64,000 nucleotides of DNA from a virus (Duplodnaviria; Heunggongvirae; Uroviricota; Caudoviricetes): positions 26,145-90,144 of the IMG/VR virus record IMGVR_UViG_3300010401_000032. The stretch is one strand, 5' to 3'. The position numbers were made by a program, and so were the translations under genes. The notes under the pieces were generated by a model. The model did not search any database, was not told the origin of the DNA, and saw only the letters and a list, made by a program, of their open reading frames with translations. Below are positions 24,259-38,711 of this stretch, piece by piece (the first letter of the stretch is position 1; each line of letters opens with the position of its first letter).

Positions 24259-24276
24259 CCTTTCTTGAAAAAGATC

Positions 24277-24305: not shown

Positions 24306-24312
24306 TTGAACG

Positions 24313-25303: not shown

Positions 25304-25320
25304 TGTAGTATAGTACGGGC

Positions 25321-25713
25321 ATGAAACGGTCTCTCCTCCAGGAAGCCCTGCGGATTGCCATCCGCAAGAACACTCCTGAAACTCACGAAGAGTGGAAAAA
25401 TTACGCCCACTTTACGTTCGTTGTGCAAGGAAATAAAATCGTAGAATGGGGAACAAACCGAAAAGGTGAAGCGTCTATCGTGTTTGGATTTGATCCCTCC
25501 CGACATAAGACCCACGCTGAGATCGATGCTTATCAAAAGGCTCGCGGACTCTTGAAAAAGAACAAACCTTTTGAAGTAATTAACGTGCGACTTAATCGAA
25601 CAAATGATACTCGTCTTTCGGCACCTTGTAAATGCTGCACGGCATTCCTTAATTCAATTGGCTGTAGAAAGACGTGGTTTACTACTGACCTTGGATGGGC
25701 AGTAACAGGATAA
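25321..25713 (+). CDS. cytidine/deoxycytidylate-deaminase-fold zinc enzyme (possibly tRNA adenosine deaminase-like)
   Basis: HAEIDA (H[AC]E) and PCKCC (PCxxC) zinc-binding motifs at correct spacing; 130 aa. Confidence 0.55.
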   Translation: MKRSLLQEALRIAIRKNTPETHEEWKNYAHFTFVVQGNKIVEWGTNRKGEASIVFGFDPSRHKTHAEIDAYQKARGLLKKNKPFEVINVRLNRTNDTRLSAPCKCCTAFLNSIGCRKTWFTTDLGWAVTG

Positions 25714-25721
25714 CTTAGTAC

Positions 25722-25799
25722 CCGCAAGAAGCATAATCGGTATATGCTCCGAGCTTATATCTCGGCGACAGGTGGGTTCGAATCCTCCCTTGCGGACCA
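25722..25799 (+). tRNA. tRNA with anticodon TAT (Ile2-like, AUA-reading)
   Basis: Acceptor CCGCAAG/CTTGCGG (perfect 7 bp). D-stem GCAT/ATGC. Anticodon stem CCGAG/CTCGG, loop CTTATAT. T-arm GTGGG-TTCGAAT-CCTCC (one mismatch). CCA encoded. A8 instead of U8. Confidence 0.5.
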
Positions 25800-25811
25800 A
25801 TACACAAAAAT

Positions 25812-25934
25812 ATGGACGACACAATTATTCAGGAAGTAATGGAATTCGGATGCAAAGTCTGCGGCGAGCCTATTGAAGAATACGGTATTTGCCAGGATTG
25901 TATTGAAGCACACGTAGATAGCGATGGAAACTGA
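25812..25934 (+). CDS. small zinc-ribbon protein (40 aa)
   Basis: MDDTIIQEVMEFGCKVCGEPIEEYGICQDCIEAHVDSDGN; CxxC-x10-CxxC. Confidence 0.3.
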   Translation: MDDTIIQEVMEFGCKVCGEPIEEYGICQDCIEAHVDSDGN

Positions 25935-26297
25935 GGGCGAGTATTTCATTAAACACTGGCCAAGCTCGATCGGCTGGCTTGCGTTAAATGCTCCACTAGA
26001 AGTCCTCCACTGTATTGATATTTTAAGCACAGATTATCAATGGATAGCTAGGCAATATGATCTGCTTAAAACAGAGTATAATCTGGGTCTAAAGTATTAT
26101 TCTCCAAATTAAATGTCCGCTGTTCCCGATACCGGTCTTCTAAACCGATGGCTTTAAATAATTGGGTGGAGCCGTAATGTTCAATTCATTCAGCGGATGC
26201 CAATATAGTCTAATTAATTAGATTTCTGTAGACCGACTAAGACGTTAGGGGTGTACTATCCATAGGGTAGATCCTACATCTTAGAGGAGGAAATCTA

Positions 26298-27953
26298 ATG
26301 AAATTTTTGACAACTGTGGTTTTAGCATGTATTTTAAGTTTAAATGCGTTTGGGCAACAGGTCCAAATGGGGAACGGCCGAGACGCCCAAGGCTGGACGA
26401 CATTTACAGCAAGTGCAGATACCCGCACTATCTATGTAAGTAGCTCGACCGGTAATGACGCTAACGATGGACTAACTCCCTCGACTCCCAAGCGTACGAT
26501 CGCGACAGGCAAGGCATTATTACGTAATACGTTTCCAGACTGGTTGCTTTTAAAGAGAGGCGACACTTGGCACGAAAATTTCGGCCAATGGAAAACCGGC
26601 GGACGTTCTCCGCAAGAGATGATGGTAGTAGGAGCCTATGGAGACGGCGAACGCCCACTATTGCTAACAGGAGCACAAGATGGTATTTACGCTTTTGCCA
26701 ATAACGGGACTCCAAATAGAATTAGCAATATTGCTTTCGTGAGCTTATCATTTATAGCAGATACCTATGACGGCAGCCAATCATGCCAAGGTATTGAATG
26801 GTTACTAACCGGCACAAACATGTTGGTCGAAGACCTTAGCGTTCAAGGATATAATGGCGGAATAGTTGTTTCATCTACCTCTGGCGATAACAACGATTTA
26901 ATGAGTCATAACCTTGTCATTAGACGTAACGAAGTGCTTGATTGTTATGCTTTAAATAATGTAAGCAATAGCGAAGGCATGTTCATCTGGCATGTCGAGG
27001 GCATTCTCATTGAAGAGAACGTACTCGATCACAACGGATGGAACGACAACGTTCCTGGTGCCGGTGCGACAATGTTTAATCAAAACGTTTATATCCAAAA
27101 CGGATGTCTCAACGCGACTTTCATTAACAACATTTCATGTCGTGCAGGATCGCACGGACTACAACAACGCTGCGGCGGTCTGACCCAGAATAACCTATTT
27201 ATAGGTAATTCACTCGGTCTAATGAGCGGCGGCGGATCTTTCCCAGAGCACGATGGCGTGCAATGTATCGTAGATAGAAATATTATCACTGAACCAAAAG
27301 ATATTTCGCCGAGCCTTCCAAGAGGATGCTCGCTTGAAATATCAAATATCACAAACGGTAGCGTAACTAATAATCTAATCTTTAGAAACTTAGACGCTCA
27401 CGATCCTCGTGGTATTTATATTCACGGAACTGCTGTTGCTAATGACGGGACACCCACGATCGGCGTTCACAATGTTCTACTTTCTAGAAATGTGATTTAC
27501 AATATGCCTCAACCCTTTTTAATTGAGGGTAACGCAACGCAAATTACTGGTATCACTATGAGGGGTAATGACGCCCAGGATCACGTAGGTCTATTGCAAT
27601 GGATTCACTTGTGGAACCAAATGAACGCATCGGCTGCTGCCAATATTCAAAGCACAAATAATACGTTCTGGAGTGATCACTTGCCAGCAGGCGATTGGAT
27701 GTATGTAGGTACACCAATGAACTTTGCTCAATGGCAAGCGGCATTACATGACAATTCTTCTACGGTTGTCAATAAAGGATATTTCGACAGTAACGCGACG
27801 ATTGCGTCATACAACGCATTCGCTGGCGGACAAGCTACGTTGGCCGATTTCTATACTCAAATCAGAGCACAGAGAAAAGGTCACTGGAATGCATTCTACA
27901 CAACTGCGGTTATTAATCGCTGGCTGAGAAGAGCATTCGATATGCAGAAGTAA
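26298..27953 (+). CDS. secreted right-handed beta-helix (pectate-lyase-fold) protein
   Basis: RBS GGAGG. N-terminal signal peptide MKFLTTVVLACILSLNAFGQQ. Repeated NN(L/I)xxxN beta-helix rungs (NNLIFRN, NNISCRAGSHG, NNVSNSEG). Confidence 0.55.
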   Translation: MKFLTTVVLACILSLNAFGQQVQMGNGRDAQGWTTFTASADTRTIYVSSSTGNDANDGLTPSTPKRTIATGKALLRNTFPDWLLLKRGDTWHENFGQWKTGGRSPQEMMVVGAYGDGERPLLLTGAQDGIYAFANNGTPNRISNIAFVSLSFIADTYDGSQSCQGIEWLLTGTNMLVEDLSVQGYNGGIVVSSTSGDNNDLMSHNLVIRRNEVLDCYALNNVSNSEGMFIWHVEGILIEENVLDHNGWNDNVPGAGATMFNQNVYIQNGCLNATFINNISCRAGSHGLQQRCGGLTQNNLFIGNSLGLMSGGGSFPEHDGVQCIVDRNIITEPKDISPSLPRGCSLEISNITNGSVTNNLIFRNLDAHDPRGIYIHGTAVANDGTPTIGVHNVLLSRNVIYNMPQPFLIEGNATQITGITMRGNDAQDHVGLLQWIHLWNQMNASAAANIQSTNNTFWSDHLPAGDWMYVGTPMNFAQWQAALHDNSSTVVNKGYFDSNATIASYNAFAGGQATLADFYTQIRAQRKGHWNAFYTTAVINRWLRRAFDMQK

Positions 27954-28018
27954 TTACTCTTCGTAAATAGGCTTTTAGGGAGATCGGAAGAACTTTTTCC
28001 GGCCTCCCGAATTTTTAC

Positions 28019-28047
28019 TTGACACGCTCCTCGCGATAGGGTATAAT
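28019..28047 (+). promoter_or_regulatory. consensus sigma70 promoter TTGACA-17-TATAAT, near-leaderless to ATG 28056
   Basis: TTGACA 28019-28024, TATAAT 28042-28047, ATG 8 nt downstream. Confidence 0.65.
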
Positions 28048-28055
28048 ACGGCGGT

Positions 28056-28316
28056 ATGACTATCAAAGAAGAGATCGAAAAACTAAACGTACAAATTCGT
28101 GGATTGTACGACGAAATCAAAAAACTACAGGATCAGTGTCTTCATCCGAAGTTTGTTCGGGGACTCACTATGGTTGCCTGCGTGCAATCTTGCTACATTT
28201 GTGAAGATTGTGGTTTTACAAAACCCATGCCAATCGAAGACATGACAGAATCGACCGATAAGACCTACTGGGAGTTTAACGGAAGCATTTTTCCCCTTGA
28301 CGGATCGGCAGGATAG
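28056..28316 (+). CDS. hypothetical Cys-containing small protein
   Basis: 86-aa ORF. Confidence 0.4.
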   Translation: MTIKEEIEKLNVQIRGLYDEIKKLQDQCLHPKFVRGLTMVACVQSCYICEDCGFTKPMPIEDMTESTDKTYWEFNGSIFPLDGSAG

Positions 28317-28414
28317 GGTATAATAGAGCACATTGGGTCCGAAGCATTAACAGTGATGCTCTCGCCTTTTAAGCCTGAGAAGAAGGGGCAGTACCTTCCG
28401 GACTCACCAAAACA

Positions 28415-28639
28415 ATGAAGATGACAGAAATTCCCATCGGTAAGCCTTTCAGGATTATCGATAATCAATGGTATAACCAATTTGTATTTGAGCGTCTAGA
28501 CCACGCTCAAATCCGAAATTTGGATACAGGTGACGTTGGAGAAATCAATCATTTTCTTGAAATAGAAGAGGTCGCGGAGTACATTCCTGGCGACCCCGAA
28601 CGAATCAAGCGATATCTGGCAAAGAAGGTGACACAATGA
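28415..28639 (+). CDS. hypothetical protein
   Basis: 74-aa ORF. Confidence 0.35.
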   Translation: MKMTEIPIGKPFRIIDNQWYNQFVFERLDHAQIRNLDTGDVGEINHFLEIEEVAEYIPGDPERIKRYLAKKVTQ

Positions 28640-29109
28640 CCCACACGAACCGCGATCTATTACAAGCAATCAACCTAGCGTTGCTGGCACACGGTTCGCA
28701 ATTGGACAAGGCGGGAATGCCCTATATTCTACACCCCCTGTATGTCATGGGGCAGGTAGATTCGACCGATGCAAAAATTGTAGCAGTATTGCATGACGTT
28801 ATTGAAGACACCGCAGTAACATTTGTTTACAATCGAATCTGCGAACTTGTAGGTATCAGTCTTTGGGGAACCACTTATTTCTTCGAAGATAAGATTCTGC
28901 ACGCCTTAGAAGCGATCACACATCGTAAGGGCGAGACGAACATACAGTATTGGACCCGCGTTAAGGCTAACCCGCTCGCCCTTACGGTGAAGCTGGCAGA
29001 CATCGCACACAACTCTTCGGAAGGGCGGCTAGCTGCCCTTCCGAAGGGTGAACAAGAGCGTTTACGTGCCAAGTATCACATGGCAAGAGAATATCTACTG
29101 GAAACTTAA
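28636..29109 (+). CDS. HD-domain small alarmone hydrolase (RelA/SpoT hydrolase-like)
   Basis: HGSQLDKAGMPYILHPLYV ... LHDVIEDT matches SpoT/Mesh1 hydrolase HD motifs. Confidence 0.6.
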   Translation: MTHTNRDLLQAINLALLAHGSQLDKAGMPYILHPLYVMGQVDSTDAKIVAVLHDVIEDTAVTFVYNRICELVGISLWGTTYFFEDKILHALEAITHRKGETNIQYWTRVKANPLALTVKLADIAHNSSEGRLAALPKGEQERLRAKYHMAREYLLET

Positions 29110-29111
29110 AT

Positions 29112-29750
29112 ATGCGACGTAACAAAGATCTATGTGTTAAGATTGCCCGCGACGTTCTTTTACAGCTTAAAAAAGGACGCTACGATCCCGTTCCCGGTAT
29201 TTATATTGAAGTAAATCTTGGTAGTCTTTTTGAAGACCATAATGGCGATATCATTGAAACCGTGAATGATCCGTTTGATGAAAGTGACGATCCTGAAATA
29301 AAGATTGTTGCAAAACCAGGCGGTTCTTTTAAGAAATTATTTAAAGAAGAAAAAGAGATTACTTGTACCGTCTGTGCCCTGGGAGCAGCTTTCATATCGT
29401 TAATCAACGTAAGAAATCGGTGTTCCAATGGCGAAGTAATAAATAATTCTCCTGAGAATATGTTCGATCGACTGGAAAAGGTCTTCGGTCAGCGTAATAT
29501 AGGTTTAATGGAAACGGCATTTGAAACAGAACCAATGCGGTTCGCTATGGGATTATCTCAAGTAGACATTGAGGCCGCTATTGAATATGGCGACCAATAT
29601 AAGAACGACACAGAACGCCTTCGTATGATTATGCGTAACGTTATTCGTAACAAGGGAGACTTTATTCTTCCACAGAAAATTGTTAAGCGTGTCGAGATGG
29701 AGTTGAGTGGAAAAAGGCAACGTATTATCCCGTATGACATGTACTATTAA
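29112..29750 (+). CDS. hypothetical protein
   Basis: 212-aa ORF. Confidence 0.45.
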   Translation: MRRNKDLCVKIARDVLLQLKKGRYDPVPGIYIEVNLGSLFEDHNGDIIETVNDPFDESDDPEIKIVAKPGGSFKKLFKEEKEITCTVCALGAAFISLINVRNRCSNGEVINNSPENMFDRLEKVFGQRNIGLMETAFETEPMRFAMGLSQVDIEAAIEYGDQYKNDTERLRMIMRNVIRNKGDFILPQKIVKRVEMELSGKRQRIIPYDMYY

Positions 29751-29752
29751 TT

Positions 29753-29836
29753 GGCCCCGTGGTGGAATGCAGACACAATAGACTCAAAATCTATCGCCCT
29801 TAAAGCGTGCCGGTGCAAGTCCGGCCGGGGCTACCA
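29753..29836 (+). tRNA. tRNA-Leu(CAA), type II
   Basis: Acceptor GGCCCCG/CGGGGCT. D-stem GTG/CAC. Anticodon stem ATAGA/TCTAT, loop CTCAAAA. 14-nt variable arm. T-arm GCCGG-TGCAAGT-CCGGC. CCA encoded. Confidence 0.65.
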
Positions 29837-29853: not shown

Positions 29854-30015
29854 ATGAAAGCACAGAAATTTAAACTAATCATCGAAAGCGATAAAAAGAT
29901 CACGACGAGTGATGTCCTTGATTTACTTCAAAAGCACCTCCAGGTCACAATCACCTCGTTAGCGGTAGTCGACTGGGACACGAAAGAAGCAGAAGGGATC
30001 TATTCACTAGAATGA
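29854..30015 (+). CDS. small hypothetical protein (53 aa)
   Basis: ATG 29854; stop TGA overlaps ATG of RNA ligase (ATGA). Confidence 0.3.
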   Translation: MKAQKFKLIIESDKKITTSDVLDLLQKHLQVTITSLAVVDWDTKEAEGIYSLE

Positions 30016-31082
30016 GCGATCTATTAGTTAGAGTAGTAAAAGTAGACGAAGTGAATCGGCATCCGAATGCTGATAAGCTTGAAATAGTTAAAGTTGGAGG
30101 CTGGCAGATTGTGTCTGGCCTTGGCAATTACAAGGTCGGCGATCTAGTGGTTCACGTGCCGCCCGAGTGTCTCGTGCCCAAAGAGTGGGCCGATAAGTGG
30201 TCCGTGACTCCCTATCTATCGTGGAAGTCCAACGCGGCCAAGGGCAGAGTGAAGGCGGTAAAACTTCGCCAAGCGGCGAGCTATGGATTTCTAGCTCCCA
30301 ACGAATCTGGAGCGGAAATTGACACAAACGTTGCCGACTTCTATGGAATTGAGAAATACGAAGAGCCCGAACCGCTCGATTTTGGCCAAGCGGCCCGTCA
30401 ACATCCATACTTCCATAAATACACTGATATTGCGAGCCTCCGGAACTTTCCAAAAAGCTTAAAATATGATGAACCAGTTTGGGTAACTGAAAAGCTGCAT
30501 GGAACAAACTCAAGGGTCGGATGGATAAAATCTCAAGATGAAAATGGGACCCCATACCTTGAAAAAGTCATCGGCACTCATCGCACTCAGCGTAAACTTG
30601 AGAATGCCGGTGTCTATGGGCTGCCGTTTGAATTATACGGCGACGGGCTTGAAAAAGCGAAGAGCTTAATAGAAGACGTAATGAAAACGCCGATAGATTC
30701 AATTATTTTCTTTGGCGAAATCTTTGGTCCCGGCGTTCAAGATCTACAATACGGTCTAAAAGACAAGGACTGGAGACTATTCGATATTGCTGTAAATGGC
30801 GAATATTTTCCTTATGACTACATAAGAGAGGTTTCTAGTCAGTGCAATATACCGATCGTGCCTAATTACGCTCCCTATATGTACAGCTTTGAGCAATTGT
30901 GCGAACTAGCAGAAGGTAAATCCGCATTAGCGGAAGGACAAATAAAAGAAGGTATTGTGGTCCGTCCAATGCGAGAACTTACATGGGGAAAGGGTGAACT
31001 TGATCCCAATCCAAAACGAATGATTTTCAAGCTTATAAACTCAGATTACCTATGCCGAAAAGGCGGAACAGAAAAACACTAA
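30012..31082 (+). CDS. RNA ligase (Rnl2/Rnl5-like nucleotidyltransferase) with N-terminal tRNA-binding OB (EMAP/Myf-like) domain
   Basis: N-terminal VVKVDEVNRHPNADKLEIVKVGGWQIVSG resembles the MetRS/PheRS-beta tRNA-binding domain; ligase motif I KLHGTN. Confidence 0.65.
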   Translation: MSDLLVRVVKVDEVNRHPNADKLEIVKVGGWQIVSGLGNYKVGDLVVHVPPECLVPKEWADKWSVTPYLSWKSNAAKGRVKAVKLRQAASYGFLAPNESGAEIDTNVADFYGIEKYEEPEPLDFGQAARQHPYFHKYTDIASLRNFPKSLKYDEPVWVTEKLHGTNSRVGWIKSQDENGTPYLEKVIGTHRTQRKLENAGVYGLPFELYGDGLEKAKSLIEDVMKTPIDSIIFFGEIFGPGVQDLQYGLKDKDWRLFDIAVNGEYFPYDYIREVSSQCNIPIVPNYAPYMYSFEQLCELAEGKSALAEGQIKEGIVVRPMRELTWGKGELDPNPKRMIFKLINSDYLCRKGGTEKH

Positions 31083-31177
31083 TATGCATGACGAAAAGCG
31101 ACCTGTCCCGAGAGGCAGGAGAATTGTAAAGGCTGGAATAGTCGGCCTCGTAATTATCCTAATTATTATCATCGGAA

Positions 31178-31402
31178 TTGATAACGACCTGTTCGAGGGA
31201 TTCGATGATTGAACTACTAAAAGATCCGCGTTATCTTTGGTTTTTATTTAACTGCCAATTACTTGGATTAAACTTTGGACTTCTTATATCGTCATTCTTT
31301 AAACACGAGTACGTCTTTATTGCTATTCTCGCCCTGGGAACAATAGCTGGAATATATAATGTCATTGTTTCGAGAGCAAAATGGCTTAATTCATATGAAT
31401 AA
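31178..31402 (+). CDS. small membrane protein
   Basis: 74 aa, two TM segments. Confidence 0.3.
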   Translation: MITTCSRDSMIELLKDPRYLWFLFNCQLLGLNFGLLISSFFKHEYVFIAILALGTIAGIYNVIVSRAKWLNSYE

Positions 31403-31583
31403 CATATTCATCAAACTTTTCGTGGTGCTAATTATAGTGCCAACATTAGCATTCGTGGGCATCGACGCCGGATTTTGGCTACTTAATCAGCCGTCCGACC
31501 TAGCGGACTTCGGCGGTTTAATCGTTCTCTTTATCACCGCAATCTCCTGTTTTTCAATTTTAAGGAAAGTATTTAAGCAATGA
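31359..31583 (+). CDS. small membrane protein
   Basis: 74 aa, two TM segments. Confidence 0.3.
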   Translation: MSLFREQNGLIHMNNIFIKLFVVLIIVPTLAFVGIDAGFWLLNQPSDLADFGGLIVLFITAISCFSILRKVFKQ

Positions 31584-32428
31584 AAGCATTTTTCACATTT
31601 CTAACCGTTATCAGCCTTTGTGCATGTACTAAGGTTGAACCGGGATATGTCGGCATTAAAGTTAACCAATACGGAAGCCAGAAGGGCGTAGAGGATTTCC
31701 CTATGCAAACTGGTATGGTATGGTATAACTTCTTTACAACAGAAGTATATAAGTGGCCTACCTTCCGCCAAAATATCATTTGGACAAAGGGTCACGACGA
31801 AGGCTCACCGAACGACGATAGTATTACTTTCAATTCTATTGAAGGCTCTGTTGTCAACGCAGACATTGGCCTTTCGTATTCTCTTCGTGCAGCAGAAGTG
31901 CCCCTCGTTTTCGTAACTTTTAGACAAGATATCGAACATATCACTCATGTCTATATTCGCTCCGAAGTACGAGACGCTATTTCACGTCATGCCAGCACTA
32001 TGAAGGTTATCGACATTTTCGGCTCGAAAAAGCAAGAGCTACTTGAAGCCGTCAAGCGAGACCTCAATGAGCATCTTGGTAAGGTTGGCTTTGAATTTGA
32101 AATGGTGTCATTTATTGGTGGATTGCGTTGCGACGAAAACGTTATGACATCGATTAATGCAACAATCCAGGCTACTCAGCTTGCTATTTCTGCTCAAAAT
32201 AAGATTGTACAATCTAAGGCCGAAGCCGACCAAGCAATTGAACGTGCTCGCGGCGAAGCTCAATCTATCATCGCGGTCGCCAAAGCACAGGCCGAGGCCA
32301 ATGATCTAGTTAATAAGTCCCTCACGCCTAATCTAGTACTATGGCGTGGAATAGATAAGTGGAATGGCACTGCACCGCAAGTACTTGGTGGAAATCTGCC
32401 GATACTGACCATGCCGGTTAAACAGTGA
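31580..32428 (+). CDS. SPFH/band-7 (HflK/prohibitin-like) domain lipoprotein
   Basis: N-terminal signal with LCAC lipobox-like Cys. Central SPFH-like region and C-terminal coiled coil (QSKAEADQAIERARGEAQSIIAVAKAQAEAN). Confidence 0.55.
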   Translation: MKAFFTFLTVISLCACTKVEPGYVGIKVNQYGSQKGVEDFPMQTGMVWYNFFTTEVYKWPTFRQNIIWTKGHDEGSPNDDSITFNSIEGSVVNADIGLSYSLRAAEVPLVFVTFRQDIEHITHVYIRSEVRDAISRHASTMKVIDIFGSKKQELLEAVKRDLNEHLGKVGFEFEMVSFIGGLRCDENVMTSINATIQATQLAISAQNKIVQSKAEADQAIERARGEAQSIIAVAKAQAEANDLVNKSLTPNLVLWRGIDKWNGTAPQVLGGNLPILTMPVKQ

Positions 32429-32513
32429 AAGTACTGGACAACTACAACCTTTAAATCACTATTTTCAAAATTTCTGTTTACAGTCCTCTAAATAGCGTCA
32501 TAATAGAACTATC

Positions 32514-32888
32514 ATGGCAACACAACTAACACTAGAAAACTTTACAAAAGAAACCGGCCTGAGATTTCGTGTCTCGTTAGCTCAACAACAAGCTATTAAA
32601 AGCGGTACGTTAACACGCGAGCAGGCTTTTAATGACTTCCTAGCAAATGGCGGTCTCGAAAAATTGAAGAACAAGAGTCGTCCAGAAGTACCGGATGAGG
32701 TCTACCATATGGATGGCCTTACGCTGGAAAACTTCGGCGAGTTCGTAGAGAAGAAGATCGGCGTCAGTCGTCGCTTCCGCGTATCCCGCGAACAAGCAAA
32801 GCGTATTGACGAAGGTACATTAACACGTGAGCAAGCATTACAGGAAACTATTGCCGCAAAACGGCAGGAAATGGCTAACAAAGTATGA
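32514..32888 (+). CDS. hypothetical protein with internal duplication
   Basis: Two repeats ...TLENF..FRVS..Q...GTLTREQA. Confidence 0.4.
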   Translation: MATQLTLENFTKETGLRFRVSLAQQQAIKSGTLTREQAFNDFLANGGLEKLKNKSRPEVPDEVYHMDGLTLENFGEFVEKKIGVSRRFRVSREQAKRIDEGTLTREQALQETIAAKRQEMANKV

Positions 32889-33280
32889 GTAATTTGAATT
32901 CGGTAGTACTACAGGGGCGTCTCACTGACAACCCCACTATTCACGGAGCGGAGCAAAACGTTGCACGATTTACATTGGCCGTAAATGACGGCTTTGGTGA
33001 AAAAGAAGAAGTTTCTTTCATCGATTGTGTTGCGTTCGGCAAGCAGGTTCCCGTAATCGGTAAGCACCTTGTAAAAGGTAAGCAAATCGTTGTTCGTGGC
33101 AAGATTGTTCAAAATCGCTGGGAAACGCCAGAAGGTGGGAAGCGTTCCAAGCTAGAAGTCAGACTAGAGAATTTCGAAGGCTTCTACTTCATCGGTCAGA
33201 ATAAGACTGGCGAAGCGGCTTCGACGACACCGGAAGAGCCGGTCGCAGCAGAAGTTACAAAGGGCGAAAAGCTCTTCTAA
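32885..33280 (+). CDS. ssb: single-stranded DNA-binding protein
   Basis: OB-fold SSB pattern VVLQGRLTDNP...RFTLAVN...FIDCVAFGKQ...VVRGKI..RWETPEG. Confidence 0.65.
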   Translation: MSNLNSVVLQGRLTDNPTIHGAEQNVARFTLAVNDGFGEKEEVSFIDCVAFGKQVPVIGKHLVKGKQIVVRGKIVQNRWETPEGGKRSKLEVRLENFEGFYFIGQNKTGEAASTTPEEPVAAEVTKGEKLF

Positions 33281-33334
33281 TTAGCCTTTTTCATCATATC
33301 AAGGGCCAGCGGTAAAGTTTTTTACTGTTGGCCC

Positions 33335-33362
33335 TTGACATTATGTAAAGGTGTGCTATACT
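33335..33362 (+). promoter_or_regulatory. sigma70-type promoter TTGACA-16-TATACT, leaderless to ATG 33369
   Basis: TTGACA 33335-33340, TATACT 33357-33362, ATG 6 nt downstream; preceded by 10-bp inverted repeat 33301-33336. Confidence 0.55.
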
Positions 33363-33368
33363 ATAGAG

Positions 33369-33836
33369 ATGAAGCTAGTTATTCTACGTGGACCTAGTGG
33401 GTCGGGCAAGAGCACAATAAGTGGACATATTTGGTGGAATATTATTCCTAAGGAATGGAGCGTCGTACACGAAGCTGATCAATTCTTTACTAAGACACTA
33501 GGGAGTGGAGATACATACAAATTTAACCAAACAATGCTCTCGAAGGCTCATGACTGGTGTAGATTAAACGTAGAACGAAGCATGTATGTAGGTGAAAACG
33601 CAATTGTTGCTAACACAAACATGAGCCTTCGAGAGATCGAGCCCTATATCGAGCTAGCAGACCAATATAATTACGAAACAGAGATTTGGCGTACTCCAGG
33701 CCCGTGGGATCCCGAAATACTTTTCCAACGGAACGTTCATAATGTTCCGTTGGAAGTGCTCAAGCGACAAATCGCCCGCTATCAACCTCATGCAGAAGAA
33801 AAGGAATGGTCGGACTTGACCATATTCAATGCTTAA
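33369..33836 (+). CDS. polynucleotide 5'-kinase (T4 Pnk kinase-domain-like), kinase domain only
   Basis: MKLVILRGPSGSGKST P-loop; VANTNMSLRE and NVPLEVLKRQIARY match T4 Pnk ISDTNLNPE / VPIDVLRSMYKSM. Confidence 0.6.
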   Translation: MKLVILRGPSGSGKSTISGHIWWNIIPKEWSVVHEADQFFTKTLGSGDTYKFNQTMLSKAHDWCRLNVERSMYVGENAIVANTNMSLREIEPYIELADQYNYETEIWRTPGPWDPEILFQRNVHNVPLEVLKRQIARYQPHAEEKEWSDLTIFNA

Positions 33837-34116
33837 TGCTCAAAATAGTAAGTGCTGGACATGTCTCCATGGTATTTGCTTACAAGAAAGTGAACAAGAA
33901 GAAATCAGTGGTATCCCGATAGAAGATGACGGCGAGCAACAAAAATATCCGTTCGCTATCGATGATCAAGACGAGGAAAACGAAGAGGAAGAGGGCAGTG
34001 CTATAATCGAAAGGGCACGAGTCAAGGCTATTTGTTTCTGGCGTCCGGAAGGTCTACAGTCACCGCCTATTCTTGTTGGGCAAGTAAAGGAATGCAGTAG
34101 ATACGAAGCAAAATGA
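33829..34116 (+). CDS. hypothetical acidic protein
   Basis: 95-aa ORF. Confidence 0.35.
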   Translation: MLNAQNSKCWTCLHGICLQESEQEEISGIPIEDDGEQQKYPFAIDDQDEENEEEEGSAIIERARVKAICFWRPEGLQSPPILVGQVKECSRYEAK

Positions 34117-34556
34117 TTACATCATTTCATACTCCTGAAACAGAATTCTTAAGTAATTTCTATCTTTGTTGCGTGCCGTATGAGGGTTTCATATATCCGT
34201 CAGCAGAAAACGCTTATCAAGCTGCCAAGACTTTAAATATAAAAGCCAGAAGTGCATTTACTCTTGAAGAAATGACTCCGGCTATGGCGAAGCACTTGGG
34301 TAAAATCATAAAGATTAGATCCGATTGGGACCAAGAGAAACTCCAGGTCATGTGGGATATCTTAAGTTCTAAGTTTGAAGATCATGATTTGAAGCGACTA
34401 TTACTAGCAACTGGTGATCAAGAATTAGTAGAAGGAAACAATTGGGGAGATGTATACTGGGGAGTATGTAAAGGTAAGGGTGAAAATAATCTCGGAAGGC
34501 TTTTAATGAATCTCCGTAAGAAACTCAACGATGAACAGTTCACTAACAATCTGTAG
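34113..34556 (+). CDS. NADAR (YbiA-like, DUF1768) domain protein
   Basis: FLSNFY..EN.YQA.K...W....ELVEGNNWGD.YWGV...GENNLGRLLM pattern of NADAR family. Confidence 0.65.
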   Translation: MITSFHTPETEFLSNFYLCCVPYEGFIYPSAENAYQAAKTLNIKARSAFTLEEMTPAMAKHLGKIIKIRSDWDQEKLQVMWDILSSKFEDHDLKRLLLATGDQELVEGNNWGDVYWGVCKGKGENNLGRLLMNLRKKLNDEQFTNNL

Positions 34557-35775
34557 CCAGATAAGAGATGCGGGAGGCACTCCGTACATAGTCGGGGGCT
34601 ATGTCCGAGATACGATCATGGGCAAGTGTCCGAAGGACACTGATATTGTCGTAGTTGGTTTTAGCTTTCCTCAACTAACTAATCTATTTGCAGCCAGTAA
34701 GATTATTGGTAAAGATTTTCCGGTAATACAGGTAGACGGAATTGAAATTGCACTAGCTAGAAAAGAAAGAAAAATTGATACTGGCCATACCGGATTCATA
34801 TGTGACACGCTAGGGGTTTCGCTGGAAGAGGACCTATTCCGCCGCGATTTAACTATAAATGCGATGGCAATGGACCCGTTCACGGAACAAATCACGGATC
34901 CATTTGGAGGAAGGGCGGATATCAATAACAAGATGATCCGGCCGGTCAGCATCCATTTCAAGGAAGATCCACTTAGGGTTTTACGAGCAGCACGATTTGC
35001 AGCACAATTCGATATGGATCTCTGCTTGCAGGTAAGCATAATGGCACAAGAGATGATGGCCGAGCTAACTACACTGACACCTGAGCGTGTTTGGGGAGAA
35101 ACTCTAAAGGCTCTCAAAACCGACAATCCTCAACGCTTTTTCGAAGCTTTGAATGAGATGGAGGTTTTGGAGATTGTATTCCCCGAAATCGCCGCACTCA
35201 AGGGACGCATTCAGCCGGAGAAGTATCATCCGGAGGGTTGCGTATTTACGCATTTCTTACAGGTGTTAGAACGTGCTAGAAATTTAGGTGCCGACGAAGA
35301 AACAATGTTCGCCGCCATGTGTCACGATCTAGGTAAGGCTGTTACTCCAGATGAGGATCTTCCTAGACATATAAATCATGAAGCGTTGGGAGTGCCGATC
35401 GTTGAAAGTCTTTGCGAAAGATTGAAAATTCCCAATTCTTTTAGACATGTGGCCGTGCTAACAGCTAGAGAGCATTTAAACATACATCGTTTTCAAGAAT
35501 TGAAGCCCGTAACTCAGGTACGTCTTATTACTAGACTTAATGGTATTCATGATGACATTACTCTAAAAAGGATTTGTATGGCATCTATGGCAGATGCTAG
35601 AGGACGTGGACCAGTCTATTGGAATAAAGAATATCCACAAGCAGATGCAGTATTAAAAGCGGCAGAAATTATCCGGTCCGTTCGTGGCGACCAATTTGCA
35701 CATTTAAAGGATGGCAATATTATCGCTCAAAAATTAGAGCAGGCGAGAACAAAGGCACTTGGATCCACTAGATAG
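34531..35775 (+). CDS. cca: tRNA nucleotidyltransferase (CCA-adding enzyme) with C-terminal HD domain
   Basis: Head-domain motif YIVGGYVRD-x8-DTDIVV (GGxVRD..DxD); length 414 aa. Confidence 0.7.
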   Translation: MNSSLTICSQIRDAGGTPYIVGGYVRDTIMGKCPKDTDIVVVGFSFPQLTNLFAASKIIGKDFPVIQVDGIEIALARKERKIDTGHTGFICDTLGVSLEEDLFRRDLTINAMAMDPFTEQITDPFGGRADINNKMIRPVSIHFKEDPLRVLRAARFAAQFDMDLCLQVSIMAQEMMAELTTLTPERVWGETLKALKTDNPQRFFEALNEMEVLEIVFPEIAALKGRIQPEKYHPEGCVFTHFLQVLERARNLGADEETMFAAMCHDLGKAVTPDEDLPRHINHEALGVPIVESLCERLKIPNSFRHVAVLTAREHLNIHRFQELKPVTQVRLITRLNGIHDDITLKRICMASMADARGRGPVYWNKEYPQADAVLKAAEIIRSVRGDQFAHLKDGNIIAQKLEQARTKALGSTR

Positions 35776-36241
35776 ATTTTGGATAAAAGTTAATAAGAAC
35801 TCTGGTACATTCGGAGCAAATGGACTATTTGAAACCGAATGTTGGGAATGGACTGCAAGTTTAACTGCCAAAGGTTATGGAAGATTTTGGCCAATTGGTA
35901 GACGCGGTTATCATGCACATAGATATTCTTGGATTATACATTTTGGAAAAATAGACGACGAAGTAAACGTTTGTCATAAATGTGATAATAGAAAATGTAT
36001 ACGACCAGATCATTTGTTTATAGGAACGCAAATAGAAAACATTAAAGATATGGACCTTAAGGGCAGGCGTCAACCAGCTAGAGGCCCGTCTCACGGGAAT
36101 GTTAAATTAACTCCAGGTGAAGTTCTTACAATTCGTTCGCTATGGCCAAGTACAAGATATTGTGATATAGCTCGTGATTTCAATATTAGTCATGGAACAG
36201 TAATGGATATTGTTAAACGACGCAGTTGGAAACACATATGA
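35759..36241 (+). CDS. HNH endonuclease
   Basis: HAHRYSW..NVCHKCDNRKCIRPDHLFIGTQIEN. Confidence 0.7.
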   Translation: MDPLDRFWIKVNKNSGTFGANGLFETECWEWTASLTAKGYGRFWPIGRRGYHAHRYSWIIHFGKIDDEVNVCHKCDNRKCIRPDHLFIGTQIENIKDMDLKGRRQPARGPSHGNVKLTPGEVLTIRSLWPSTRYCDIARDFNISHGTVMDIVKRRSWKHI

Positions 36242-37308
36242 AGAATCCCATCCTTTTAAAGCAAATGCTAAAAGAGGTAGAAGCTGGAAATGTAACAGCT
36301 TCGAAGTCTGGGGATCTAACTATATTCAAGTACTCACAGGACTGTCATATAGAAGGTAGATGGAATTCTGTCAACAGGATTGCCCGTGGCTTGATCATGA
36401 AAGACGATGGAACAATCGTCGCTCGACCATTTGCTAAATTCTTTAACCTTGGTGAAGTAGCCGAAACACAAATAGGCGAACTCCCGTGGAGTGAGTCTGT
36501 TGAAGTCTACGAAAAGGTAGACGGAAGCTGCGGGATTGGATACCTAGATCAAGACGGATGCTGGAAATTGGCAACTCCTGGGAGTATGGAATCTACACAG
36601 GCAGTTGAAGGTACTCTAATACTGCGTCAGATGTATAGTAAAGGTTTACAATTATTACCACGTGATTGTACTCCGGTATTCGAAATTATATTTCCAGCGA
36701 ATAGAATTGTTGTCGACTATAAAGGCGAAATATTTCTAGCTTTGTTGGCAATATTCGAAAAGAACGGCGAAGAGTGGCATCCTCGCCGCGTCGATCAAAT
36801 TGCTCAAGCCTGCGGCTTTCGCAGACCTAAGCGTTATGATATTGACCTACGCGGAGACATTCCGTTTAATGACAATGAAGAGGGCTACGTTGCTCGCTTT
36901 GAAAGTGGTCTCCGCGTAAAGGTCAAGTCTCCTGCGTACTTAAGAGTCCATAGACTCTTAAACTACATGAGTCCTAAAGGCGTAATCGAATTGATACGCG
37001 GGAAAGAATACGGCGTTACTCTATTACAACTGCCGAAGGGAATCCAACAGGACTTTGACGACATTAGGGCATCGGTTCAAAATTCATACGATGCTCTAAA
37101 GATATCGGTCGAAGACGTAGCACGTCGTATACCAGACGGCGACCGCAAAACAAAGGCCCTATGGATCCAAGCTAACGCTCCAAACCGCCTGAGCGGGCTA
37201 GTATTCGCCTCGATGGATGGCAAGTCCATCGAAGATAAGCTCTGGAGAATTGTTTCGGACGATCTTAAAGAAAAAACAGCACCTATTATTTCGCAGGAAG
37301 CGATATAG
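36226..37308 (+). CDS. ATP-dependent RNA/DNA ligase-family nucleotidyltransferase (Rnl1-like)
   Basis: Motif I EKVDGS (KxDG), motif IV EGYVAR, motif V KVKS. Confidence 0.55.
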   Translation: METHMKNPILLKQMLKEVEAGNVTASKSGDLTIFKYSQDCHIEGRWNSVNRIARGLIMKDDGTIVARPFAKFFNLGEVAETQIGELPWSESVEVYEKVDGSCGIGYLDQDGCWKLATPGSMESTQAVEGTLILRQMYSKGLQLLPRDCTPVFEIIFPANRIVVDYKGEIFLALLAIFEKNGEEWHPRRVDQIAQACGFRRPKRYDIDLRGDIPFNDNEEGYVARFESGLRVKVKSPAYLRVHRLLNYMSPKGVIELIRGKEYGVTLLQLPKGIQQDFDDIRASVQNSYDALKISVEDVARRIPDGDRKTKALWIQANAPNRLSGLVFASMDGKSIEDKLWRIVSDDLKEKTAPIISQEAI

Positions 37309-37310
37309 CT

Positions 37311-37544
37311 ATGAAAAACCCCGATAATAAACATCTTAGAATAACGCCGCCAAGATTTGCAGCTAGTGGTCTACCAATAACGGAGGCCGCAACCGGCTAC
37401 GCTATAGTACTTTCTAATTTGGCAATTGCTGAATCTAATTTGGTAAAAGCTGGCAAAGACAGTGCTTTACCCCATTTTATAGCAATCGTGAAAGAGATTG
37501 AAAGAATGTATGGATTCAAGTTCGAGATAGCAGAGGACGTATGA
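37311..37544 (+). CDS. hypothetical protein
   Basis: 77-aa ORF. Confidence 0.35.
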   Translation: MKNPDNKHLRITPPRFAASGLPITEAATGYAIVLSNLAIAESNLVKAGKDSALPHFIAIVKEIERMYGFKFEIAEDV

Positions 37545-37837
37545 GATGGCGAACAAAGGTCGTTCCAAGACCAGAATTAGTTCAAAAGGGTTGCCTGAGA
37601 ACGGTTGATCATTTTGCTTGGATACCAACTATTGCTAATGACGGTTATACGTATTGGCTTGAAAAGTTAATATATACCTATAGCTGTCTAGAGGACACGA
37701 CCATTCCTCCTGGATATCAAGAAATTTCATATTCGTACGAAGATGTCTATAGTATGGATGGCCCAGGTGTAGTCGATATAAAGGCAGTGAAACACGTAAA
37801 AGATGTTTGGAAGTTGATAGGTATTACTAAAATATGA
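37541..37837 (+). CDS. hypothetical protein (paralogue of next ORF)
   Basis: Shares FAWIPT...YWL...Y..LEDT pattern with 37834..38091. Confidence 0.4.
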   Translation: MRWRTKVVPRPELVQKGCLRTVDHFAWIPTIANDGYTYWLEKLIYTYSCLEDTTIPPGYQEISYSYEDVYSMDGPGVVDIKAVKHVKDVWKLIGITKI

Positions 37838-38091
37838 AATGGAAAACTAGAAAACCTAAGCCTATTCCTCAGTCATTTTGGAAGAAGGGTGAGTCTGTAA
37901 CCGTTAGAAAATTTGCCTGGATTCCAACCGCCTGCCAACATGGTGAAACCTATTGGTTAGACTATCTGTATTTTAATTATACCGCACTAGAAGATACGTT
38001 TGTTTCTCCGGGATGTTGTGTAGATTACGAAGATCAAATGACTAGAGAAATATGGCAATTAAATTTCATAGTTCCTTGGAATACTAAATGA
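37834..38091 (+). CDS. hypothetical protein (paralogue of previous ORF)
   Basis: See previous. Confidence 0.4.
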   Translation: MKWKTRKPKPIPQSFWKKGESVTVRKFAWIPTACQHGETYWLDYLYFNYTALEDTFVSPGCCVDYEDQMTREIWQLNFIVPWNTK

Positions 38092-38711
38092 TCCACTATA
38101 ACTTACAAGAATTTATAGCACGTACTAATCACCCAAACGCCGAATACCCGCTTCGCTTTCAAGAGATCATCAGCGGACAAGGACTAGGCATTGTATTCTC
38201 AATAGAAAAGGGACCCTGGTTAGCGGGCGGTGCAGTGCGTCGGTTGTTCGACGGCAGCAATAAAGAAAGTGACTTTGATATTTTCTTTAAAAGCGAGCAG
38301 CAACTAAACGACTTCAAGGCTCAGCTACTAACCTTAGGAGATAAGGTTCTATATGAGAACGATCTTAATGTTACAATGTTGTCTAATAGAGCCGGAATGA
38401 AGCCTTTTAAAGTACAGCTTATAAAGTTCTATTTCGAGAATCCGGAAGATGTATTAAATTGGTTTGACTATACCATCTGCCAGTTTCTAACAGATGGATT
38501 TACATTAATGGTTGGTAACTACACGCTATATGATGTTGGCAGTAAGCGTCTTGCTCTAAATACAGTTCACCACGGACTGTCTACAGTACGACGCATGCTG
38601 AAATACGCCAATCAAGGTTATAGCGTTTGTGACGGAACAATCGTAAATATTCTCAATAGAATAATTAGTAATCCGGAAATTATTAATAGCGGTATTATTT
38701 CTATTGACTAG
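38088..38711 (+). CDS. pol-beta-superfamily nucleotidyltransferase (minimal CCA/poly(A)-type head domain)
   Basis: WLAGGAVRRLFDG-x6-DFDIFF (GGxVR..DxD). Confidence 0.45.
   Translation: MIHYNLQEFIARTNHPNAEYPLRFQEIISGQGLGIVFSIEKGPWLAGGAVRRLFDGSNKESDFDIFFKSEQQLNDFKAQLLTLGDKVLYENDLNVTMLSNRAGMKPFKVQLIKFYFENPEDVLNWFDYTICQFLTDGFTLMVGNYTLYDVGSKRLALNTVHHGLSTVRRMLKYANQGYSVCDGTIVNILNRIISNPEIINSGIISID

Follow-up and report, generated by a model that had tools for sequence, protein, structure and literature searches.

A putative tRNA-centred RNA-repair module in the early/middle region of an uncultivated tailed phage

Results and discussion

A kinase, a CCA-adding enzyme and an RNA ligase share one gene chain

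We analysed a 64,000-nucleotide stretch (the window) from the roughly 161 kb genome of an uncultivated tailed phage and conclude, by analogy with characterised systems, that its early/middle region probably encodes an RNA-repair module centred on tRNA, for which large phages already offer precedents. Three enzymes make up the operon-like core of this module (33369-37308): a kinase resembling Pnk, a CCA/HD enzyme of the E. coli type and a ligase of the Rnl1 type. A further ligase, of the Rnl5 type, is encoded 2.3 kb upstream of the core chain, where a tRNA array ends. The five ORFs that an earlier note had singled out (30012, 33369, 34531, 36226 and 38088) were found as placed, on the + strand like all features described here, with their domain calls upheld. 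That note had described a dispersed toolkit. We find instead that the core genes form a single overlapping, operon-like chain: between 33369 and 38711, nine ORFs overlap their neighbours or lie 2 nt apart. The chain runs kinase, acidic ORF, NADAR, CCA/HD, HNH, Rnl1, three small ORFs and a nucleotidyltransferase (NTase). The gaps flanking the chain hold promoter-like and terminator-like sites, in counts no higher than shuffled expectation.

The tRNA array (15420..29836) holds 21, possibly 22, genes. ARAGORN detects 20 and Rfam 21, and their union gives 21 well-supported genes, the number claimed earlier, plus one marginal gene. Between them lie small ORFs and the gene for an ATP-dependent DNA ligase (22800-23909). 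As all 21 well-supported genes encode their 3' CCA (53 of 55 do so in related contigs), the role of the CCA enzyme would be repair and not maturation.

Using the biochemistry of homologues (T4 Pnkp and Rnl1, CthPnkp, E. coli Cca, NgrRnl and DraRnl), we can outline a pathway. A cyclic or 3' phosphate would be opened and removed by the HD domain of the CCA enzyme, the 5'-OH would be phosphorylated by the kinase, and the break in the loop would be sealed by Rnl1. Damaged 3' CCA ends would be restored by the CCA-adding domain, and nicks in duplex (stem) RNA would be sealed by Rnl5. It is pure inference that the nuclease being countered is PrrC, RloC, VapC or colicin-like. Of the earlier idea of a complete repair system, a heal-and-seal plus CCA-repair gene set beside the tRNA array is upheld; two of the proposed members, at 4717 and 38088, drop out for the reasons given below.

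The kinase retains part of the T4 Pnk active site

The kinase gene (33369..33836, with an alternative GTG start at 33351) encodes a P-loop protein, 155 aa from its ATG, that has the Pnk/PSTK/Kti12 fold and consists of a kinase domain only. It matches PF13671 AAA_33 (7.7e-9) and, over the kinase half of the profile only, phrog_505 “polynucleotide kinase” (5.5e-12). Its family profile aligns with the T4 Pnk kinase domain at a probability of 98.7%, and fold comparison places it nearest CthPnk, PSTK and T4 Pnk. Fold and gene neighbourhood together bear out a kinase-only Pnk homologue. The attribution of T4 Pnk-like motifs stands in part: the P-loop, the Asp general base and the base pocket are retained, but counterparts of Arg38 and Arg126 are missing and Asn takes the place of Asp85. 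In T4 Pnk, the six essential residues include Arg126 and also Arg38, which binds the acceptor 3'-phosphate (PMC2831316). From its sequence, we propose that the protein is a 5'-OH polynucleotide kinase that would heal 5' ends. Alternatively, it could be a PSTK/Kti12-type kinase or ATPase that depends on tRNA, or could phosphorylate nucleotides or small molecules in the service of the nucleotide-metabolism genes nearby (a nucleoside deoxyribosyltransferase and a dNMP kinase). PSTK, Kti12 and small-molecule kinases come close behind in fold score, which we count against the Pnk reading; we nevertheless regard these other functions as distinctly unlikely.

The proposed Pnk assignment invites comparison with phage T4, where Pnkp and Rnl1 counter the PrrC anticodon nuclease. 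As in T4, the heal-and-seal logic would be phage-encoded, the kinase profile matches the Pnkp kinase domain and there is a ligase of the Rnl1 family that has the Lys of motif I. Unlike T4 Pnkp, the window kinase is a separate 155-aa protein without Arg38/Arg126 or the DxDxT (HAD) phosphatase domain, and 3' healing must come from another protein.

The CCA/HD enzyme is the better candidate for 3' healing

The gene at 34531..35775 encodes a full-length E. coli-type multifunctional CCA-adding/repair enzyme, confirming the CCA enzyme plus HD domain reported at this position. Pfam recognises PolyA_pol, PolyA_pol_RNAbd and HD, corresponding to a class II NTase head and neck and a C-terminal HD phosphohydrolase. 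PRK10885, “multifunctional CCA addition/repair protein”, aligns with the enzyme from end to end (2.5e-113), with a score below the NCBIfam equivalog cut-off (379 vs 451 bits). Identity to E. coli Cca is 43% over the full length; GGxVRD..DxD, RRDLTINA, EDPLRV, HPE, HD, HxxH and D355 are invariant between the two, and the HD site is intact. In E. coli, Cca serves in repair, and its HD domain takes off 2',3'-cyclic phosphate; that domain has been characterised with mononucleotides and tRNA 3' ends, not anticodon-loop breaks, and CCA addition to nicked tRNA is reportedly about 1000-fold slower (PMC6961547). In both organisms the tRNA genes all encode CCA (PMC6961547). Unlike its E. coli relative, the window enzyme is phage-encoded and set between a Pnk-like kinase and an RNA ligase. 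By analogy, we propose that it rebuilds CCA ends and that its HD domain removes 2',3'-cyclic or 3' phosphates.

The 3'-healing role had previously been offered to a calcineurin-like metallophosphoesterase (4717..5445; PF00149 Metallophos, 1.7e-11). This protein has no sequence-level similarity to the CthPnkp phosphatase or to lambda phosphatase, and a PDB search returned only Dbr1, at E 0.07. It also gave no match to a profile of the small metallophosphoesterase (MPE) family that accompanies phage kinase-ligase pairs. Its gene lies 28 kb away, with HNH, NUDIX and NAMPT genes as neighbours. On sequence, profile and neighbourhood, we reject it as a member of the repair module and consider the HD domain of the CCA enzyme the better candidate.

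Two RNA ligases of different families

The ligase of the core chain, an Rnl1-type (T4 RnlA-like) RNA ligase of 356 aa (36238..37308), answers to the Rnl1-like ligase described earlier; the gene call indicates that its start is probably the ATG at 36238 rather than 36226. It matches PF09511 (1.2e-16), phrog_562 (1.1e-56) and the T4 Rnl1 structure 2c5u (6.4e-12), and its EKVDGS, EGYVA and KVKS align with T4 motifs I, IV and V. By analogy with T4, we propose that it seals healed tRNA breaks.

The upstream ligase (30012..31082, 356 aa) is an ATP-dependent RNA ligase of the Rnl5 (DraRnl/NgrRnl-like) type. PF21189 (PHA02142 OB fold) covers residues 5-96 (E 6.8e-12) and PF09414 (RNA_ligase) residues 154-340 (E 1.8e-15), giving an OB module at the N-terminus followed by an NTase domain; a C-terminal domain is lacking. 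TIGR02306, the DraRnl family, spans the whole protein (E 2.2e-35) with a score under its cut-off, and among solved structures the best match is Naegleria NgrRnl (5cot/6vt4, E 2e-6). Within the family, K161, E236, F257, E313 and K340 (motifs I-V) are invariant. DraRnl (Deinococcus) and NgrRnl share with it the plan of an OB fold and a C-terminal NTase domain, and every NTase motif; motif I differs, reading KxHGTN, with an Rnl2-like His, where NgrRnl has KLDGSS. The OB domain had been taken for a tRNA-binding module of the EMAP/Myf type. An N-terminal OB fold is indeed present, but its EMAP/Myf likeness falls below threshold (PF01588, 19.5 bits vs a 27-bit cut-off; pheT N-terminus, E 2.5e-4). 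In NgrRnl the OB domain touches the ATP gamma-phosphate and is required for adenylylation (PMC7261155). On these sequence relationships, the OB domain is the signature catalytic module of Rnl5, with no tRNA-binding role indicated, and the enzyme is predicted to seal nicks having an RNA 3'-OH strand.

Conserved gene order and kinase-ligase association

Eight related IMG/VR contigs, with protein identities of 45-70%, share the order Rnl5 ... SSB-kinase-acidic ORF-(NADAR)-CCA/HD-(HNH)-Rnl1. Within this clade, a phosphoesterase lies between kinase and Rnl1 each time: CCA/HD in the window, L002/L003, L004, L006/L007 and L008, a small MPE in L010, and both in L005. A gene order shared inside a single clade of phages may be inherited from an ancestor rather than selected for linkage. 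Outside the clade, an ATP-dependent RNA ligase occurs within 6 kb at 34 of 79 kinase-family loci vs 1 of 78 control loci (Fisher p = 2.8e-11), and 26 of those 34 loci also carry a small MPE. Four cultured phages from as many unrelated lineages, ACP17, River4, muut and C11, have the kinase homologue immediately beside an Rnl1-type ligase, and phosphoesterases are encoded close by. These split kinase/small-MPE/Rnl1 sets parallel Clostridium thermocellum Pnkp, which combines kinase, metallophosphoesterase and ligase. Unlike them, the window has no member of the small MPE family and places the CCA/HD enzyme between kinase and ligase. In one sense, then, gene co-location exceeds chance, both by the order kept in eight contigs and by the kinase-ligase enrichment across unrelated phages.

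An alternative is that there is no integrated system, only independent housekeeping or auxiliary genes sharing an early-gene region, with kinase and Rnl1 as a minimal heal-and-seal pair. The CCA/HD enzyme would then maintain tRNA 3' ends against exonucleolytic turnover while the phage tRNAs boost translation, and Rnl5 would act in replication or DNA repair, sealing nicks at RNA-DNA junctions. Routine CCA turnover is among the tasks of E. coli Cca (PMC6961547). DraRnl has been linked to DNA repair, and Rnl5 ligases, for which a physiological RNA substrate is not established, have a role in the cell described as “uncharted” (PMC5397189). The Rnl5 gene abuts an ATP-dependent DNA ligase in L008 and L009, and is followed in the window by SPFH and SSB genes. 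The parts are also separable, since L010 (kinase-MPE-Rnl1) has no CCA enzyme and L009 (CCA-Rnl1) no kinase. Against this collection of unlinked genes stand the kinase-acidic ORF-CCA/HD adjacency in seven of the eight related contigs, another five kinase loci, from outside the clade, that have a CCA enzyme within 6 kb, and the tightly overlapping chain. We consider it unlikely and favour the repair module.

RNA-repair toolkits have been described for jumbo phages (Iyer, Anantharaman, Krishnan, Burroughs, Aravind 2021; PMC7824862, section 3.4.9). Their inventory follows the logic seen here, with tRNA arrays, Rnl1/Rnl2-type ligases, PNK, phosphoesterases of the HD or calcineurin kind, a CCA-adding enzyme, a TROVE protein and NADAR. 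Unlike those phages, this one is uncultivated, falls under their jumbo threshold at about 161 kb, and has no RlaP, RtcB or HAD phosphatase.

The terminal nucleotidyltransferase resembles Gad2

The last gene of the overlapping chain (38088..38711) encodes a 207-aa protein with a fold like the head of class II CCA enzymes. The minimal NTase motifs reported for it are real, GG..R and DxD being invariant in the family alignment; its place in the toolkit is not upheld. A profile search of a Pfam copy gave no match, while Pfam itself places the protein in PF26128 Gad2, and its homology to the Gad2 NTase domain is evident by BLASTP (7e-12) and hhalign (98.3%). Gad2, Gabija anti-defence 2, is experimentally verified (Yirmiya et al., bioRxiv 10.1101/2023.05.01.538930), its mechanism still not being known (PMC12904381). 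Gad2 proteins measure 394-400 aa, and the window protein lacks their C-terminal ~220 residues. From this homology, it is probably a Gad2-like anti-defence gene and not a repair enzyme.

If it were instead a working toolkit member, it would be a second minimal CCA-like or RlaP-like enzyme extending damaged tRNA or RNA 3' ends. We find this very unlikely. The homology is to a validated anti-Gabija protein, no RlaP (PF10127) match was found in Pfam, and the body and tail domains by which CCA enzymes hold tRNA are absent. The gene is also missing from most relatives of the phage, and at 78 other viral loci of the family, 63 have no RNA-repair gene within 8 kb and only seven have a tRNA gene.

Additional genes in and near the chain

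Directly 3' of the kinase, here and in the related contigs (L001-L010 syntenic), is an acidic, Cys-containing ORF of 95 aa (33829..34116), which may be a partner of the kinase; Pfam and PHROG profile searches gave no match for it. The NADAR-domain protein that follows (34113..34556; PF08719 6.9e-24, TIGR02464 over its cut-off) sits between kinase and CCA enzyme; of the relatives, L008 and L009 alone share it. We read it as an accessory insertion, with an uncertain role here in ADP-ribose or N-glycoside processing. The HNH homing-endonuclease-like ORF (35759..36241; PF13392 3.9e-10, phrog_59) has another position in L002 and is missing from the remaining relatives; it is a mobile insertion separating the CCA enzyme from Rnl1, outside the pathway.

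Two genes upstream of the Rnl5 ligase lies a SpoT/RelA-type HD hydrolase, similar to small alarmone hydrolases (28636..29109; phrog_990 2.9e-41, TIGR00691 N-terminus 5e-10), which is a possible extra phosphoesterase. As a separate observation, HD genes like this one accompany the kinase-ligase modules of ACP17 (gp227) and C11 (gp030).

Predicted RNA-repair genes form a conserved block in a large tailed phage

The window, with a GC content of 42.7%, clearly comes from a large tailed-phage genome. The phage is known from metagenomes only; contigs of about 161 kb match it (Logan SRR6184671, 160,995 bp), and a megablast search of GenBank phages returned no match to the region and no close relative. 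Also encoded are rIIA/rIIB, nicotinamide phosphoribosyltransferase (NAMPT), NUDIX, DNA ligase, SSB, dNMP kinase and ribonucleotide reductase, and genes run on the + strand to about 51.2 kb.

The earlier note had described the RNA-repair genes as dispersed. Instead, because their order is kept in eight related IMG/VR contigs (76-183 kb, with proteins 45-70% identical), we regard them as a conserved block. The shared order begins with the tRNA array, DNA ligase, Rnl5-type ligase, (SPFH), an unknown gene, SSB, the Pnk-like kinase and an acidic ORF, and continues with (NADAR), the CCA-adding enzyme with its HD domain (CCA/HD), (HNH), the Rnl1-type ligase, (NTase), deoxyribosyltransferase and dNMP kinase. 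From 33369 to 38711, nine ORFs form a chain in which neighbours either overlap by 4-26 nt or stand 2 nt apart. The top promoter-like match of the region (33335-33362) lies just 5' of this chain, which starts with the kinase, and a terminator-like hairpin and a second promoter-like site lie 3' of its final ORF. Site counts in the promoter and terminator scan did not exceed the shuffled expectation, and we take the flanking sites as weak support for an operon.

Several other genes accompany the repair enzymes. As an insertion, an HNH homing-type gene (35759-36241) separates the CCA enzyme from the Rnl1-type ligase. The acidic ORF, a putative small partner of the kinase, is followed by a NADAR gene (34113-34556) and then by the CCA enzyme. 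The acidic ORF itself (33829-34116, + strand; 95 aa) matches no family and shows the pattern CxxC...C...C...C; it is found directly 3' of the kinase in kinase-bearing related contigs at 26-46% identity, and possible roles of its product are those of zinc-binding partner or regulator. The nucleoside 2-deoxyribosyltransferase (PF05014) and dNMP kinase (phrog_139) genes (38848-39965, + strand), 3' of the chain and syntenic in relatives, are nucleotide salvage or modification genes unrelated to RNA repair. In one relative, L009 (IMGVR_UViG_3300036768_000279, locus 6054-8722), the block looks eroded: the Rnl5-type ligase is reduced to its last 28 residues, the DNA ligase match is in two pieces, the kinase is absent and NADAR is truncated, while CCA/HD, the Rnl1-type ligase and the Gad2-like NTase are intact.

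The block encodes two types of RNA ligase

The ORF at 30012-31082 had been called an RNA ligase with an N-terminal OB domain, and this assignment holds: PF21189 (PHA02142 OB fold; residues 5-96, E 6.8e-12, above cut-off) precedes an RNA_ligase NTase domain (PF09414, E 1.8e-15). All six sequences compared keep K161, G235-E236, F257, E313-G314 and F339-K340 (motifs I, III, IIIa, IV and V). The closest solved relative is Naegleria NgrRnl, whose residues 14-179 align by phmmer with residues 12-169 of the phage protein, placing K161 on the motif I lysine. The protein ends 16 residues past K340 (motif V), without a C-terminal appendage domain, and it matches TIGR02306 (DraRnl) over its full length with E 2.2e-35 and 122.2 bits, below the equivalog cut-off of 151.15 bits. 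By these comparisons it is a divergent member with Rnl5 (DraRnl/NgrRnl) architecture, predicted to seal duplex nicks that have 3'-OH(RNA) and 5'-PO4 ends.

A further proposal, that the OB domain is of the tRNA-binding EMAP/Myf type, fared less well. The resemblance is real but sub-threshold (PF01588 19.5 bits against a cut-off of 27; pheT N-terminus E 2.5e-4), and the OB call itself is based on Pfam and homology to NgrRnl. As the OB module of NgrRnl touches the ATP gamma-phosphate and is needed for adenylylation (PMC7261155), we regard the phage module as a catalytic accessory and not as evidence of tRNA targeting.

The Rnl1-like ligase proposed in the earlier note is borne out. The ORF at 36238-37308 scores 61.7 bits against PF09511 (cut-off 28.3) and matches T4 Rnl1 at E 6.4e-12, with EKVDGS, EGYVA and KVKS aligned (motifs I, IV and V). 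As to the C-terminal domain that gives Rnl1 its tRNA specificity, the phmmer match to 2c5u covers only residues 53-248 and the phrog_562 match covers residues 18-351; the score against TIGR02308 is 57.5 bits, compared with a cut-off of 242.

A stand-alone kinase family is associated with RNA ligases

The kinase gene (33369-33836) encodes 155 aa from the ATG at 33369 and carries no fused 3'-phosphatase domain, its phrog_505 match spanning only positions 2-147 of a 295-position profile. A profile of the family matches the T4 Pnk kinase domain with a probability of 98.7%. Invariant in the family are the P-loop, D37, Y50, H61, N82-T83, N122, H124 and V126; the P-loop residues G8, G11, S12, G13, K14 and S15, equivalent to T4 GxxGxGKS with Lys15 and Ser16, are conserved in all 29 sequences, and D37 aligns with the T4 general base Asp35. 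The Pnk-like fold and the Val-Pro-x-x-Val nucleobase pocket (T4 Val131, Pro132 and Val135) are retained, and R121 and N122 match T4 R122 and N123. In the T4 Pnk sequence used for this alignment, the numbering is consistent with all residues that PMC2831316 names.

Six T4 Pnk residues are essential (Lys15, Ser16, Asp35, Arg38, Asp85 and Arg126), of which Arg38 binds the acceptor 3'-phosphate (PMC2831316). The phage kinase keeps the first three. Arg38 aligns with F40, at a position without a conserved basic residue across the family, Asp85 is replaced by the invariant N82, and Arg126 falls in a 4-residue deletion (RNV----HNVP). Thus, the reading of this protein as a kinase-only enzyme with T4 Pnk-like motifs stands for the P-loop, the general base and the base pocket, but not for Arg38, Asp85 or Arg126. 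With only three of the six essential residues kept, the sequence by itself does not fix the substrate; gene neighbourhood narrows the choice.

In four unrelated lineages (Acidovorax phage ACP17, Vibrio phage River4, Escherichia phage muut and Pseudomonas phage C11), a homologue annotated as 'ATPase' directly adjoins an Rnl1-type ligase, and near the pair is a metallophosphoesterase of about 185 aa (the small MPE), often together with a SpoT-like HD hydrolase. Among 79 IMG/VR loci outside the window's clade, that is, the window phage and its relatives, 34 have a ligase of Rnl1 or Rnl5 type no more than 6 kb from the kinase, compared with one of 78 control viral loci (Fisher p = 2.8e-11). Thirteen of the Rnl1 genes abut the kinase, and the small MPE is also present in 26 of the 34 loci. 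This neighbourhood of kinase, ligase and small MPE is the CthPnkp domain set as separate genes. Thus, a stand-alone kinase family that widely carries the annotation 'ATPase' shows a strong association with RNA ligases and a small phosphoesterase in phages, and probably represents a split Pnkp 5'-kinase. For the window's protein we predict, with moderate confidence, a polynucleotide 5'-kinase.

The HD domain of the CCA enzyme is a candidate 3' healer

CCA/HD (34531-35775) is 43% identical end to end to E. coli Cca. The class II head motifs (GGxVRD..DxD, RRDxTxNA and EDxxR; EDPLRV) and the metal ligands H233, H241, H265-D266, H280, H283, H315, H319 and D355 are invariant between the two proteins, and the C-terminal HD phosphohydrolase matches PF01966 at 1.5e-9. 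The best NCBIfam family is 'multifunctional CCA addition/repair protein' (2.5e-113); the score against NF008137, 378.9 bits, is below the equivalog cut-off of 451 bits, and PcnB is far lower at 142 bits. These matches uphold the call of a CCA-adding enzyme with an HD domain, with a predicted specificity for CCA as opposed to poly(A).

Within the clade, the interval between kinase and Rnl1-type ligase always holds a phosphoesterase. The window and five other contigs have CCA/HD in this place, contig L010 has the small MPE and lacks the CCA enzyme, and contig L005 has both. Yakunin et al. (2004, as cited in PMC6961547) report that the E. coli Cca HD domain removes the 2',3'-cyclic phosphate of tRNA ends. 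From the seven contigs and the activity of the E. coli enzyme, we propose that the HD domain of the CCA enzyme would supply the 3'-healing activity here. An E. coli-type CCA/HD enzyme occupies the usual slot of the small phosphoesterase in this clade, and, more speculatively, its HD domain may have replaced the small MPE as the 3' healer of a split Pnkp-type pathway.

A calcineurin-like phosphoesterase at 4717-5445 had been put forward for this step, by analogy with Clostridium Pnkp. It has a generic PF00149 match only, and a PDB search returned nothing beyond a marginal match to Dbr1 (E 0.07). An hmmsearch with the small-MPE profile gave no window match better than E = 1, and no relatives of the protein were found in IMG/VR. 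Its gene lies 28 kb upstream of the kinase, flanked by HNH, NUDIX and NAMPT genes, and is absent from the flanks of the related repair loci. Lacking both specific similarity and genomic linkage, it was rejected as the healing enzyme, and the HD domain is the candidate that we favour.

The NUDIX hydrolase and NAMPT genes (5859-8093, + strand) adjoin the 4717-5445 gene, forming an NAD+-salvage or reconstitution-type cluster. The kinase-Rnl1 modules of phages C11 and River4 have NAMPT and Prs-like genes as direct neighbours, so that one counter-defence island, split in the window phage, may comprise both RNA-repair and NAD-salvage genes.

Encoded CCA ends point to a repair role for the CCA enzyme

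The window has 20-21 tRNA genes between 15420 and 29836 (ARAGORN; Rfam). A genomic CCA directly follows all 21 well-supported genes, and 53 of 55 in related contigs. As every one of the 21 encodes its own CCA, the enzyme is not needed for tRNA biogenesis, and maturation of the phage's own tRNAs is ruled out as its purpose. The same holds in E. coli, where tRNA genes encode CCA and the CCA-adding enzyme is unnecessary for biogenesis (PMC6961547). Its retention in the phage points to a probable role in 3'-end repair. We also considered tRNA splicing as the reason for a ligase: neither ARAGORN nor Rfam found introns that would require one, and the extra length of tRNA-Thr, tRNA-Asn and tRNA-Lys is due to long variable arms.

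These three tRNAs, tRNA-Thr(UGU) at 19605-19691, tRNA-Asn(GUU) at 21722-21810 and tRNA-Lys(CUU) at 21899-21990, measure 87-92 nt, and their long variable arms of 4-5 bp are class-II-like. tRNA-Leu(UAA) and tRNA-Leu(UAG), at 22286-22362 and 22374-22451, reach only 77-78 nt and lack a long arm. Such scaffolds are unusual for their anticodons. A tRNA with the anticodon CUA, of amber-suppressor type, lies at 16141-16217 on the + strand (ARAGORN label 'Pyl'; Rfam tRNA 53.8 bits). Stop codons of the 87 predicted genes are TAG in 12, TGA in 48 and TAA in 27; long ORFs are intact and wholesale recoding is not evident.

The small nucleotidyltransferase is related to Gad2

The NTase at 38088-38711 had been interpreted as a second, minimal nucleotidyltransferase for repair. 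Its precomputed Pfam label, for the exact protein, is PF26128 'Gad2'; a Pfam match to RlaP was not found. Gad2 is a 400-aa phage protein with a predicted NTase domain that neutralises Gabija defence (bioRxiv 10.1101/2023.05.01.538930). As reference we used the experimentally verified Brevibacillus laterosporus homologue from Supplementary Table 10 of that paper. The NTase domains are homologous: residues 44-189 of the phage protein match residues 28-172 of this reference by BLASTP (E 7e-12), and hhalign gives a probability of 98.3% (E 2.6e-14). The link was found only with this supplementary sequence; tblastn against GenBank phages, with the window NTase and a Firmicute member as queries, did not reach the SPbeta-like Gad2 genes. 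Unlike Gad2, the 207-aa NTase has no C-terminal half, the alignment stopping at about residue 172 of 394.

The short form is a large family in its own right; it counts at least 437 members, mostly about 200 aa long. No conserved neighbour was found in 78 other viral loci; 63 of them have no toolkit-gene homologue within 8 kb, and a tRNA gene is present in only seven. The place of the NTase at the end of the operon therefore does not argue for repair, and an anti-defence role is more likely. A very common phage 'hypothetical protein' of about 200 aa is thus annotated here as a short Gad2-like NTase with the CCA-enzyme head fold.

The mechanism by which Gad2 acts on Gabija is still unknown (PMC12904381). 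The family has the fold of a truncated class II CCA-adding-enzyme head, and its short form would be co-transcribed here with the Rnl1-type ligase, CCA/HD and the kinase. One improbable idea would join the two roles: Gad2-like NTases would act on tRNA or RNA 3' ends, linking anti-Gabija activity mechanistically to tRNA repair. If so, they could, for example, re-extend or cap ends made by OLD-family nucleases, and the operon would be a combined 'tRNA damage response' directed against more than anticodon nucleases. Cleavage of tRNA anticodon arms by P2 Old has recently been reported (Govande et al. 2025, as cited in PMC12904381). We continue to favour an anti-defence role separate from repair.

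Relation to repair systems of other phages

The general scheme is already described for jumbo phages, in which tRNA arrays occur with Rnl1- and Rnl2-class ligases, polynucleotide kinases, CCA-adding enzymes, HAD, calcineurin or HD phosphoesterases, TROVE proteins and NADAR/Macro domains, a set read as a counter to tRNA-cleaving host effectors (PMC7824862, section 3.4.9). More broadly, RNA-repair enzymes of phages counter bacterial immunity that targets tRNA, and this view now extends to tRNA arrays. To these systems the window adds an uncultivated and divergent example of sub-jumbo size, with details of its own: a kinase-only Pnk-like protein, CCA/HD in the small-phosphoesterase slot, and Rnl1- and Rnl5-type ligases together. 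The observation in the earlier note is confirmed and its interpretation partly supported; anticodon nucleases would be a plausible target of the repair. The kinase and Gad2-like NTase assignments are testable annotations, neither of which overturns current understanding.

Two further loci deserve mention. A SpoT/RelA-type HD hydrolase resembling small alarmone hydrolases (28636-29109, + strand; phrog_990 2.9e-41, TIGR00691 N-terminus 5e-10) lies two genes 5' of the Rnl5-type ligase, and similar genes are found near the kinase-Rnl1 modules of phages ACP17 and C11. One possible function is alarmone degradation; a more speculative one is reversal of the tRNA 3'-end pyrophosphorylation that toxSAS toxins carry out. 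At the other locus, a TROVE/Ro60-like ORF (1326-2855, + strand; PF05731, vWA_Ro60, phrog_850) is immediately preceded by a match to the Y RNA-like YrlA (RF02553; 1191-1305, + strand). This match is full-length and includes a tRNA-like module of T-arm and D-arm, but is sub-threshold (29.8 bits against a gathering score of 69; E 0.005 over 15 kb, 1e-4 locally). Together, the two features look like a phage-encoded Ro-Y RNA pair, which would add to the RNA quality-control or repair elements from a position outside the repair block.
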